Below, piece after piece: positions 2,334 through 7,634 of a stretch of DNA of 45,990 nt (within the stretch, counting starts at the first letter, position 1; the number at the start of each line of letters is the position of its first letter). The notes below the pieces were generated by a model. That model was not told where the DNA came from, searched no databases, and saw only the letters and a program-made list of their open reading frames with translations. The translations under genes and the position numbers were made by a program. Source of the DNA: Coleofasciculus chthonoplastes F2-STO-03 (GTDB lineage Bacteria; Cyanobacteriota; Cyanobacteriia; Cyanobacteriales; Coleofasciculaceae). The stretch spans positions 1 to 45,990 of the forward strand of contig JAVJWO010000094.1 of NCBI GenBank assembly GCA_040222015.1, written 5' to 3'.

Positions 2334-2936
2334 TCAGTACGTTGTCGAATTCCAATGTTGAGGAGTTATACAATTATAGTCAATCAGAAAGAGAAAATCC
2401 GCGCCGTGGGCTTCTTGGAGGGCAACAAAAAAGTCGAGAATCGCGCCACCTTCGGCGGGGGTCAGGCTGTCGAAGCGCTCGTGGAAAATGGCTAGTGGAG
2501 TACCGGAATCGAACCATTCGATCTGCTGCTTACGGAGCAGCTCCGTCATGTCGTCCGGCAAACCGAGACCGGACGGGAGCCTAGTAGCTCGATCAAGCGC
2601 TTCTACGACGTCTGTACGAGAGGGTTCGGTGAGTGCGCCTACGAGTTCGGAGACGAAGACGCTCAGAGATGCATAGGACTCCAGGGAAGCGTACAGGAAG
2701 GCTGGTAGGAAGTAACGGAATGCCTCCGGAGCAAGCATCCAGAGGTTGCCTTCGACCTCGGTTCAGAGATCGTACACCGAGAGTTCAGTTGACGTATTCG
2801 TAGCCAGGAGTTCGCGCAGGCGATCGCCTTCGTAGTTCACCGCCGGTCGCAAGATCTGAGTAGCTAGGGGTCGGGGGCGCAAGGCGAACGTATTGAATAA
2901 GCGAGCTTTGAGGTTCTTGTCTGGAGGGACTTGCAT
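2334..2936 (-). pseudogene. Interrupted immunity-like gene (DUF6714-like)
   Basis: ATG at 2936 (MQVPPDKNLKARLF...) is in frame with ORF 2334..2738 but broken by TGA at 2765-2763. It carries the motif LAPEAFRYFLPAFL. The 3' end runs from GC-rich into AT-rich DNA near 2395. Confidence 0.7.
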
Positions 2937-2940
2937 GTCA

Positions 2941-3158
2941 TTAAATGGTTGTCGGGTTCTCGGGCGAGATCTGGTCGAGGAGCAGAAAAATTACCGCCAT
3001 CACTGCTGCGGCGCTTGCTGCCACGGCGGTTGCTCCGGCTACTGCAATGATAGCCTTCACGAGTACGATAATCGCTGCGATGAGTGCAACCACTGCTGCG
3101 ATGACTAGCACTGCCATGGCTGCCGCTGCGACGACCTCTCTAGCGCGTTCGACGACTA
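2941..3158 (-). pseudogene. Orphan hydrophobic C-terminal fragment (probable displaced toxin tip)
   Basis: Not in the ORF track. Reads VVERAREVVAAAAMAVLVIAAVVALIAAIIVLVKAIIAVAGATAVAASAAAVMAVIFLLLDQISPENPTTI*. It begins right after the stop of the upstream gene and stops 4 nt before the next ATG. Confidence 0.6.
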
Positions 3159-5139: not shown

Positions 5140-5522
5140 GATGCCGCCTCAGTTGCCCGATAATGTGATGATTGGAGCCGATTCCCTCAAGAATCCTGGG
5201 TGATTCTCCGATATGTCAATGCCTGCCCGTTCCGAGAAAACGCCGGATAGCGGCTTGACCCAAGACATCTTGAGATGATGGCTAGAGTATAAACTATTTT
5301 GTCTAAACCGAATTCAAGCGGAAATATGTTTTAACATAAGAGCCAGAAAACGGGAGCAAGGGGAGAGACTGTTGAGTTTTGCGGTAAGCGTTAGCGTAGC
5401 CATGCCCGAAGGGCTATAGCTATCCCGGAGGGAATCGCTCTTCCTAACCCACTTGATTATTACCCCCTTTCACTCTCCAAACAGACGATAAACTTTAACA
5501 CCATTAAAACATAGAAATATAT

Positions 5523-7634
5523 ATGGATACTCCCACACCAATCACCTGGTATCAAGCCAACTTTCACTATCTCCAGACAGCCGTAAATCAAGTCCGACAG
5601 GTTTTAGAAGATTACCTCGCTTACCAGCAAAATCAGCCCAGTCTAGCCAAATTGGAAACGACGTTATCGCCAGATGCCGCAGCGATTCTCGACTATGCGC
5701 CGCCAGCCTTAGATAAACTCTGCGCTTTATTTCACCTCTCCCAATTTGACCGCTATATCCTCTTATTATGTGTTGGCATGGAGTTGGATAATGAGTTTGA
5801 AGTCTTATGTGCCAAAATTAACGGCAATCCTAAACGCAATTATCCCACGCTGAATTTAGCCTTATCTACGTTTCAACAGTCTTATCTGGGTATTCTTTCC
5901 TCCCAATCTCCGTTACACCAGTGGGAACTGATTGAAATGGTGGAAGGATTATTCTTTACTCAATCACCTCTACGCATTAATCGGCGCATTCTCTGTTATC
6001 TGTTGAGTGAAGCTTGTATGGATAAGGAATTGGCAGGTATCCTTTTACCTGTACCCCCTTCATCCTCAACCCCTCTTCCCCCTTCGTATCAAAAAATTGC
6101 TGATCAAATTATCGCTACTTGGTCTAAATATTTGGCAACATCTGACCATCCCATTGTTCAGTTATGTGGGTCAGATATAGCGGCGAAGCAATCCATTGCT
6201 ACTGTTGTCTGTAGTGCATTAGGGTGGAATCTTCAGATGATATCAGCGTCTGTTCTTCCCTTTAATCCCAATCAACTGTATCAGTTGATCCAACGGTGTT
6301 TCCGGGAAGCTTTATTAACCCACAGTTTTTTGTTCCTGAATGGCGATGAGATGAATCCAGGTGATCCTCGGCGAGAATGGGCAATTGCTGAGTTTGTTGA
6401 ACAATTAGAAGTGCCGTTAATTTTCAGCACCCAGGAACGACAACCCCAACGCCAACGCCCGATGATTACTTTAGATGTGGGTCAACTGAGTCATGCTGAA
6501 CAACGAGATATCTGGAAATCCCATCTCGGTTCACTGACAACAGAACTGAATGGACAAATTGATACCCTAGTCTCCCAATTTAATCTCAACGTCGCCGCGA
6601 TTCAAGCCGCCTGTTTATCGCTGAATAGTACGGACTATACGCCTACACCACCGGATGAACAGCCGGATAACGAACAAAACGATAAGAAACCAGCAAAAAC
6701 CGCCTCATCCTCAACCCGCCGTCGCTCATCAAAAACTCAAAAGTCTCAACCTAGAATAGAAAATCCCTTATCTCCCCTGCAAACTCATTTATGGGATTTC
6801 TGTAAGACTCAAGCGCGTCCCCGTTTAGATGATTTGGCGCAACGGATTGATGCTGTCGCCACTTGGGAGGAGTTGATTCTACCAGAACGAGAAAAAGCTA
6901 CATTACAGGAGATTTCGGCTCATGTGCGACAACGAGCGAAGGTTTATCAAGAATGGGGATTCGCGGGAAAAGGAGGACGTGGATTAGGGATTAGCGCTCT
7001 TTTTTCCGGACCGAGTGGAACGGGAAAAACCATGGCGGCGGACGTATTGGCAAAGGAGTTACGCCTTGACCTTTATCGGATTGATTTGAGTGCGGTGGTG
7101 AGTAAATATATTGGTGAAACGGAGAAGAATTTGCGGCGCATATTTGATGCAGCAGAAACCAGTGGGGCAATTTTACTCTTTGATGAAGCAGATGCTTTGT
7201 TTGGCAAACGAACGCAAGTGAAAGATTCTCATGATCGCCATGCGAATGTGGAAGTGAGTTATTTATTGCAACGGATGGAAGCCTATCAGGGATTAGCGAT
7301 TTTGACGACAAATCTGCTCGACGCTTTAGATCAAGCGTTTATGCGTCGAATTAATTTTTCAGTGAAGTTTCCCTTTCCCGATGCCCCAGAACGAGCCGAA
7401 ATTTGGCAGCGCATTTTTCCAAAAGAGACACCGACAAATAAGTTAGATATGCAAAAGTTAGGTAAACTAAATATGGCGGGGGGAAATATCCGTAATATTG
7501 CCTTAAATGCGGCGTTTATCGCGGCGGATGCGGGAGAGTCTGTGATGATGAAACATCTTTTACAAGCCACGAAAAGCGAATCTCTTAAGTTGGGTAAAAT
7601 TTTAACGGATTCCGAAATTAGGGGCTGGGTTTAA
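5523..7634 (+). CDS. AAA+ ATPase, eCIS Afp15/Pvc15-like
   Basis: N-terminal helical domain (LCALFHLSQFDRYILLLC), degenerate first P-loop (LCGSDIAAKQS), active second AAA module (GPSGTGKT, LLFDEADALFGKR, DRHANVEVSYLLQRME). Confidence 0.85.
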   Translation: MDTPTPITWYQANFHYLQTAVNQVRQVLEDYLAYQQNQPSLAKLETTLSPDAAAILDYAPPALDKLCALFHLSQFDRYILLLCVGMELDNEFEVLCAKINGNPKRNYPTLNLALSTFQQSYLGILSSQSPLHQWELIEMVEGLFFTQSPLRINRRILCYLLSEACMDKELAGILLPVPPSSSTPLPPSYQKIADQIIATWSKYLATSDHPIVQLCGSDIAAKQSIATVVCSALGWNLQMISASVLPFNPNQLYQLIQRCFREALLTHSFLFLNGDEMNPGDPRREWAIAEFVEQLEVPLIFSTQERQPQRQRPMITLDVGQLSHAEQRDIWKSHLGSLTTELNGQIDTLVSQFNLNVAAIQAACLSLNSTDYTPTPPDEQPDNEQNDKKPAKTASSSTRRRSSKTQKSQPRIENPLSPLQTHLWDFCKTQARPRLDDLAQRIDAVATWEELILPEREKATLQEISAHVRQRAKVYQEWGFAGKGGRGLGISALFSGPSGTGKTMAADVLAKELRLDLYRIDLSAVVSKYIGETEKNLRRIFDAAETSGAILLFDEADALFGKRTQVKDSHDRHANVEVSYLLQRMEAYQGLAILTTNLLDALDQAFMRRINFSVKFPFPDAPERAEIWQRIFPKETPTNKLDMQKLGKLNMAGGNIRNIALNAAFIAADAGESVMMKHLLQATKSESLKLGKILTDSEIRGWV

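Follow-up and report, generated by a model that had tools for sequence, protein, structure and literature searches.

A predicted DUF4157 toxin, its DUF6156 partner and a probable loader ATPase encoded apart from injection-system structural genes in Coleofasciculus chthonoplastes

A toxin gene, a partner gene and a divergent ATPase gene on one contig

We analysed contig JAVJWO010000094.1 of the cyanobacterium Coleofasciculus chthonoplastes F2-STO-03 (assembly GCA_040222015.1), which carries a polymorphic toxin gene with a DUF4157 domain, a small partner gene and a gene for an AAA+ ATPase of the kind found with contractile injection systems (CISs). The window, that is, the whole stretch of 45,990 nucleotides, is one entire 46-kb contig (C94) of a 7.7-Mb draft genome (G000). 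The open reading frames (ORFs) of the module were confirmed at the positions given by the initial annotation, which was made from the DNA letters alone (Table 1). The ATPase and toxin genes lie head-to-head with 384 bp separating their two starts, and DNA alignments of about 90% identity run without a break over 4169-7634, gap included, in three relatives (G002, G005 and G007). No sigma-70 consensus site was found in the gap, and a promoter and terminator scan stayed at chance level. The flanks of the ATPase module vary: a WD40 gene adjoins it in G000, G001, G003 and G004, and other genes do so in G002, G005, G007 and G008.

No sheath, tube, baseplate or spike gene was detected among the 29 ORFs scanned, and genome-wide searches place none on this contig, as the initial annotation had stated for the 46 kb. 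The window therefore lacks the compact operon by which extracellular CISs (eCISs) are recognized, with sheath, tube, spike and baseplate in one locus.

Table 1 Features of the module in the window (aa, amino acids)
Feature	Position	Strand	Basis
Afp15/Pvc15-type AAA+ ATPase, 703 aa	5523-7634	+	Pfam AAA and WHD, motifs, match of the Serratia plasmid ATPase, tree
Intergenic gap of the divergent genes, likely shared control region	5140-5522	.	Kept alongside the genes in three relatives
Polymorphic effector gene of the DUF4157 (PVC-metallopeptidase) type, 500 aa, with hydrophilic leader, DUF4157 and variable tip	3637-5139	-	
N-terminal leader, about aa 1-60, predicted loading signal	4960-5139	-	Conservation and composition; role inferred from loader papers
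DUF4157/eCIS core domain with HExxH; tip junction at 4167-4169	4162-4380	-	DNA homology endpoints
Tip domain (aa 362-500) with His389 and Cys484; predicted Cys-His hydrolase of the permuted papain-like (NlpC/P60) kind	3640-4056	-	
DUF6156 protein, 138 aa, hydrophobic N-terminus, Cys24; likely envelope-anchored immunity protein	3159-3575	-	
Remnant of a deleted DUF4157-Ntox16 toxin gene, its Ala-rich tail	2941-3157	-	94% DNA identity to the 3' end of the intact G002 gene
Remnant of the DUF6714 partner gene, with a premature stop (2763-2765) and without its 3' end	2393-2936	-	G002 and G007 have intact copies of 203 aa
Remnant: part of the region upstream of another DUF4157 gene	2353-2403	-	91-100% matches, most of them immediately upstream of DUF4157 genes, in G001, G002, G004 and G007
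Remnant of a third partner gene (DUF6843 in G001): its last codons and the DNA downstream	2220-2324	-	84-86% match to the end of a 151-aa partner in L046

CIS structural genes lie on other contigs

A genome-wide scan recovered sheath, tube, spike, gp25, baseplate, CIS_tube and Pvc16 genes off the contig, in two CIS gene sets. The compact set on contig C23 comprises a sheath, two tubes, CIS_tube, VgrG, gp25, a spike tip, baseplate-like genes, a tape measure and Pvc16, and is adjoined by one whole and one partial ATPase gene and by broken DUF4157 genes. The split set is spread over C85 (sheath, three tubes and Pvc16), C22 (a tube) and C173 (CIS_tube, VgrG, gp25 and baseplate). The description of the locus as stand-alone thus holds within the contig and fails genome-wide, since structural genes lie on four others. 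These same genes agree with the initial annotation's reading of a satellite effector-plus-loader module with a CIS encoded elsewhere, on which the module would act in trans.

The ATPase genes of this genome keep company with cargo. None of the Afp15 type was found at the structural sites on C85, C22 and C173, and the five copies in G000 all stand beside DUF4157 genes or their remnants, with ATPase-DUF4157 pairs on C94, C214 and C216. At C23:25530-33855 a duplicated ATPase 3' end accompanies the remnants of three related leader-bearing DUF4157 genes, one of them interrupted; from its sequence, the cargo of the C23 locus looks decayed.

Across 31 genomes, whose counts include kin that are not independent, the ATPase occurs in 20 and the sheath in 21; a sheath accompanies the ATPase in all 20, and 10 of the 11 ATPase-negative genomes are without one. 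All eight congeners hold a sheath of the size found on C85 and a baseplate of the C173 type. Furthermore, G022, whose genome is nearly closed, has an ATPase-DUF4157 pair in head-to-head arrangement at a distance of about 280 kb from the sheath.

The ATPase belongs to the Afp15/Pvc15 family

The ATPase matches Pfam AAA at aa 493-617 and an N-terminal winged-helix variant (WHD) at aa 61-172, and no NCBIfam family matched above its cut-off. Motif alignment agrees with the initial annotation's description of one dead and one live module: Walker A, Walker B, sensor-1 and the arginine fingers are intact in D2, and D1 is without the Walker A lysine motif. A degenerate D1 with an active D2 recurs in all ten proteins aligned, including an ATPase from a Serratia plasmid. 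Evans and Waterfield describe the same layout of dead D1 and live D2 for Pvc15 (PMC11495950), so it marks the family and is no special feature of this protein, as had been supposed.

The Serratia plasmid ATPase, which is encoded between tape-measure and Pvc16 genes, finds 5523-7634 as its best match in the genome (E 2e-72; next family 6e-22), and close ATPase homologues were found within CIS structural loci. In a quick tree of 52 ATPases, which has long branches and includes no non-CIS outgroup, satellite copies and structural-locus copies interleave, and the window's ATPase joins the C23 copy and a plasmid CIS copy in a group with a support of 99. It therefore groups with ATPases of CIS structural loci, and not with the non-CIS AAA families that the initial annotation had named as the contrary outcome. 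Motifs, the Serratia match and the tree agree on the proposed Afp15/Pvc15 identity, and the protein is likely to be a cargo loader. Four relatives have it at full length, with 90-93% identity.

Fragments of 129 aa from the ATPase N-terminus lie between tandem DUF4157 genes at L041:7196-7585 and L042:9472-9861, which suggests that the array unit was duplicated along with the start of the divergent ATPase gene.

Tips are exchanged at a fixed junction in the DUF4157 carrier

The DUF4157/eCIS_core domain (PF13699) covers aa 254-326 of the toxin (E 6e-27; 94 bits, cut-off 22) and contains the motif HELVHVEQQ, of the form HExxHxxQ. The C-terminal 140 aa, here called the tip, match no Pfam family, in line with the distinct C-terminal domain seen in the initial annotation. 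Carriers in congeners are 80-88% identical over aa 1-330, and the hydrophilic leader, the first 60 residues, is 89-93% conserved among close carriers. This conservation ends directly after the QQ. In nearly every close copy, DNA homology to relatives stops at 4167-4169, at the HExxHxxQQ motif, and a contig of RNA run X1 likewise starts at 4169. In contigs from RNA runs (four sets), those from relatives cover the carrier and ATPase and not the tip or partner; the presence of long contigs suggests library DNA, so the runs indicate neither expression nor its absence.

Eighteen close carriers bear 14 tip types, and the genes adjoining the ATPase orthologue differ in tip in all seven cases. One tip recurs at 99-100% identity in three strains at differing array positions. 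Arrays hold four whole toxin-partner genes in tandem in G002 and three, one of them partial, in G007; the first toxin gene of G001 is broken. Tips are thus exchanged at a fixed junction after HExxH, as expected of the polymorphic-toxin diversification first suspected, and the cross-strain comparison gave swapping tips where an invariant tip and downstream gene would have spoken against it.

In this toxin family the third zinc ligand is expected to be a glutamate on the helix following HExxH. Here a conserved EQEADRVA segment (window 4621-4686, aa 152-173), shared with paralogues, lies upstream instead and might provide that ligand in permuted order. In the arrays, a gene of the polyprenyl-synthetase family follows certain toxin-partner pairs (L029:12449-13405, L031:4117-5073 and 11401-12363, L033:623-1579, L041:2853-3806), a recurrence that suggests prenyl or terpene chemistry tied to some tips.

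A predicted papain-like tip and its DUF6156 partner

We found 216 homologues of the tip, in proteins of 275-875 aa; it is C-terminal in 108 of the 120 homologues listed, and His389 and Cys484 occur without exception (121 of 121). Carriers among 91 aligned proteins include DUF4157 (32), Tox-PAAR-like (11), RHS (7) and PAAR (1), and short stand-alone versions exist, one near an ATPase homologue. A profile search of representatives, whose alignment included carrier domains and whose totals are not tip counts, returned the tip in all 115 new proteins among its best 150. Searches of plasmids gave no match to the tip, and its sequence found chance-level matches only in the PDB.

The model of the tip has a pLDDT score (the predicted value of the local distance difference test) of 92.5 (52 for a single-sequence fold), with His389 at the start of a strand and Cys484 at the start of a helix. 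In permuted NlpC/P60 proteins the catalytic His, on an N-terminal strand, comes before a Cys that opens a C-terminal helix. Compared with 48,161 chains, its nine best matches (Z 4.5-5.5, root-mean-square deviation 3.2-5.4, 83-110 residues aligned) are PLAAT4, a deSUMOylase, CLN5, Aichivirus 2A, TseH, a Euglena subunit, YiiX, a Bacillus cysteine peptidase and RID, all of which we take to be permuted papain-like proteins. Named neighbours in an atlas are IcsB-like and TseH-like clusters, with TseH lower-ranked (0.93). This modelling predicts that the tip is a Cys-His hydrolase of the permuted papain-like (NlpC/P60) kind. Permuted members of this class typically act on acyl linkages, and the permuted NlpC/P60 toxin Tox-Act1 is described as a periplasm-acting phospholipase (PMC12994826). 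The tip resembles Tox-Act1 and TseH in its predicted His-before-Cys papain-like fold, its polymorphic-toxin context and its likely envelope-linked immunity gene (PMC12994826). No match was found between the tip profile and the one member of the Tox-Act1 clade compared, or to Pfam TseH among tip homologues within the 25 of 42 families listed. If the tip is toxic, we lean slightly towards a lipid as its target; lipoproteins or peptide bonds are possible alternatives.

The gene at 3159-3575 on the minus strand, which bears out the small downstream partner of the initial annotation, matches DUF6156 above the cut-off (E 6e-9). Of 14 distant tip loci, drawn from several phyla, 10 have a DUF6156 homologue downstream, irrespective of the carrier, and in nine of those it is the next gene. 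Of 11 partners, eight start with a hydrophobic stretch that stops close to a cysteine, as in lipoproteins. The predicted tip-DUF6156 complex scored 0.78, against 0.00 for the best control, on a scale whose mark is reached by 116 of 157 solved pairs and 2 of 215 mismatched pairs; contacts agree by at least 93% between runs, and the partner has a pLDDT of at least 85. The predicted interface includes Gly388-His389, Trp403-Pro404 and His437 onward. From the modelled complex and the gene context, DUF6156 is likely to be an envelope-anchored immunity protein, and an immunity protein in the envelope would point to a bacterial target. A literature search for the term DUF6156 found no paper. In an Anabaena genome, an unrelated lipoprotein-like gene (L049:6759-7214) stands between the tip gene and the DUF6156 partner.

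Remnants of a tandem array downstream

The segment at 2393-3157 has a GC content of 57%, against 36-50% for its neighbours, and over 765 bp is 94% identical to an intact gene pair in G002, the tail of a 541-aa DUF4157-Ntox16 gene and its DUF6714 partner. The second tip and partner that the initial annotation described here are therefore real in origin and incomplete in substance: the relic of the toxin is the Ala-rich tail only, the Ntox16 domain and carrier having been lost, and the partner gene is broken by a premature stop and the loss of its 3' end. The corresponding downstream units in relatives are full-length genes. In G007 the DUF6714 gene at this site is intact without its toxin, as expected of orphan immunity. 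Judged from its DNA, 2220-3157 is the deletion debris of a collapsed tandem array and no recombination-ready cassette.

Proposed function and its alternatives

We propose, with a probability of roughly 0.7, that the window encodes a toxin-immunity-ATPase module which, apart from the CIS structural genes, supplies a CIS with cargo, its tip attacking the envelope and its DUF6156 protein protecting kin. In this scheme the ATPase hexamer would grip the hydrophilic N-terminal leader, and D2 would unfold the 500-aa protein and thread it into a tube, either that of the split CIS found across the genus or that of the compact C23 CIS. After injection, the tip, as a predicted Cys-His acyl hydrolase or transferase, would attack the envelope of competitor bacteria, most plausibly the membrane lipids, while in kin the envelope-anchored DUF6156 protein would cover the tip's active site. 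The locus would grow by tandem addition of whole toxin-partner genes and by tip exchange, and shrink by deletions such as those that left the debris at 2220-3157. Loading of AlgoCIS requires the Alg15 ATPase and a disordered N-terminus, and not DUF4157 (bioRxiv 10.64898/2026.05.27.728243); because of this report and that on Pvc15 (PMC11495950), we read the leader as a loading signal.

Several observations weigh against this proposal. In G004 and G008 the 5' part of the orthologous ATPase is gone although the toxin ORF is whole, so an adjoining ATPase is not always retained, and 18 of the 52 full-length ATPases have no DUF4157 BLAST match in the stretch fetched, although five of them have DUF4157 by hidden Markov model (HMM) and some lie at contig ends. 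Four of the 14 distant tip loci are without a DUF6156 homologue, three of 11 partners are without a signal-like N-terminus, and Cys484 is not named in the predicted interface. The fold matches lie below the tool's Z guideline of 8, Foldseek found no match to the tip at E 0.001 in the PDB and viral models, and deSUMOylase-type peptidases are among the matches, which allows for more than one kind of substrate.

The same genes could instead serve a CIS that fires inside the producer's own filament during regulated cell death or differentiation, where the tip would hit self membranes and DUF6156 would restrain it until then. The Anabaena CIS is cell-associated and tied to stress-induced ghost cells (PMC8894136), and a Streptomyces CIS paper mentions regulated cell death in its title. 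However, fast strain-to-strain exchange of tips with cognate partners and the intact partner gene without toxin in G007 fit conflict between strains, and the tip is also borne by RHS and PAAR carriers; we consider self-firing unlikely. A little less probable still is that the ATPase and toxin are a decaying relic no longer in use in this strain. Decay is evident nearby, in three deletion remnants downstream, the ATPase broken in G004 and G008, the first toxin broken in G001 and the broken DUF4157 genes on C23, but the ATPase, toxin and partner ORFs of the window are intact with all motifs, and the close identity of full-length ATPases in four relatives also speaks against it.

A route independent of any CIS, in which the ATPase needs no phage-tail machine to export or activate the DUF4157 protein, or else has a role in anti-phage defence, would explain a contig without structural genes and the AAA similarity to the anti-phage ATPase IetA/IteA. 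The IteA match is confined to D2, however, at 106 bits against a cut-off of 510; PADLOC gave no match for the other two genes, and the pairing of IetA with a partner peptidase that defines IetAS was not found. Because all 20 ATPase-positive genomes have a sheath, and with close homologues in CIS structural loci, this route, which the initial annotation had offered for export, is very improbable. The initial annotation had also named an orphan cassette, and on that reading the downstream relic would be maintained and would recombine into the main gene to switch its tip. The fixed junction after HExxH and the near-identical tip-partner pairs at differing array positions in G001, G002 and G007 indicate that exchange occurs in the family; the relic, by contrast, has neither carrier homology nor Ntox16, its partner is broken and the downstream units of relatives are full-length genes, which makes such a cassette scarcely credible.

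Several probable loaders per genome

Congeners carry eight ATPase clades on the quick tree, and single genomes carry many copies. G002 has six full-length ATPases and 9 DUF4157 domains, and G001 seven ATPases (one with a stop) and 18 DUF4157 domains, each with one detected sheath and one baseplate gene. Most ATPase clades adjoin their own recognizable leader family. The more alike two ATPases are, the more alike their leaders tend to be (Spearman 0.49 for the 351 pairs that 27 modules give; the other 25 of the 52 ATPases, which have no nearby DUF4157 gene with a usable N-terminus, were left out). We rejected this correlation as evidence of specificity, since the pairs are not independent and linkage alone accounts for it.

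We raise, as a tentative and rather doubtful idea, an address code on one shared chassis: the six or seven ATPases would be exchangeable channels, each reading its own leader family and travelling with its own toxin array, and the channel in the window would carry an envelope-attacking cysteine hydrolase with DUF6156 as its immunity protein. Against it stand the sufficiency of linkage, the broken ATPase of G004 and G008, and the 18 ATPases without a nearby DUF4157 BLAST match. Whether loader ATPases are specific for particular leaders is stated to be open (PMC11495950), and genomes with several ATPases hold natural matched and mismatched loader-leader pairs, which bears on the programming of eCIS cargo.

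A leader of the C216 type (44-60% over about 90 aa) also occurs on three G000 genes without a DUF4157 match, C65:20020-25068, C47:399-1841 and C216:58257-59087, the second of which has a phosphotransferase domain and a beta-propeller partner. By sequence, all three are candidates for leader-only cargo.

Relation to known systems

DUF4157 is an established marker of eCIS effectors (PMC8213781, PMC11297309, PMC12210884, bioRxiv 10.1101/2021.10.19.465003). PVC-metallopeptidase (DUF4157) polymorphic toxins with a PVC-AAA ATPase were described, with a cyanobacterium named, by Zhang et al. in 2012 (PMC3482391); like the genes analysed here, they combine a constant N-terminal DUF4157 with HExxHxxQ, a variable C-terminal toxin and a CDC48-like ATPase. 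That report also notes an abundance of PVC toxins in Microcoleus chthonoplastes and lists Ntox16 for cyanobacteria and PVC. Many of its PVC toxins are without immunity genes, whereas the present arrays have a partner for each toxin (PMC3482391).

The CIS of Halogeometricum borinquense similarly has DUF4157 toxins with downstream immunity genes, some with locus tags far from the cluster, and sheath-dependent secretion; it differs in being archaeal and membrane-anchored, and no ATPase is reported beside the distant toxins in the part of that paper available (PMC11566945). Pvc15 and Alg15 share the N domain, degenerate D1 and active D2, and their cargo shares the disordered N-terminal leader, DUF4157 and variable C-terminus (PMC11495950; bioRxiv 10.64898/2026.05.27.728243). 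Their ATPase genes lie in the structural operon, whereas here the ATPase sits with the cargo, with six or seven paralogues per detected sheath gene. The thylakoid-anchored CIS of Anabaena is likewise cyanobacterial, and its DUF4157 proteins were detected in purified particles; two DUF4157 genes adjoin its compact cluster, while one of the CIS sets here is spread across three or more contigs (PMC8894136).

It is thus already known that a CIS can serve DUF4157 toxin-immunity pairs encoded far from it. The tip-DUF6156 pair and the multi-loader layout may be new: literature searches found no description of this pair or of six or seven loader paralogues per sheath, within a scope that did not extend to subscription journals, bioRxiv supplements or, for PMC3482391, its figures and Additional File 1, where such loci may be listed. 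The analysis proposes a function for DUF6156, and a toxin family that is found on carriers of the DUF4157, RHS and PAAR kinds. Modules of this sort would often be overlooked by eCIS catalogues built around operons.

Other genes in the window

To the right of the module, 7898-14495 holds a P-loop NTPase gene and a 1623-aa NTPase-WD40 gene; a weak PADLOC match there is to PDC-S20 (E 7e-6). These genes keep their place where the module is absent, and no link to the module is seen.

On the minus strand at 30980-38251 stand a 1755-aa gene without a Pfam match and, after it, a 188-aa gene and a gene with a YbjN domain. Residues 1-1198 of the large protein are 80-82% identical in four congeners and its C-terminus diverges; several paralogues occur at loci with DUF4157 matches. 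From this pattern of sequence conservation, the region is likely to be a second polymorphic effector locus. Paralogues with a YbjN domain, 41-46% identical (window 30980-32152; C158:1410-2552 and C65:25679-26437 in G000; L062:7778-9637), recur beside large effector-like genes and within a plasmid CIS locus, and are possibly cargo chaperones.

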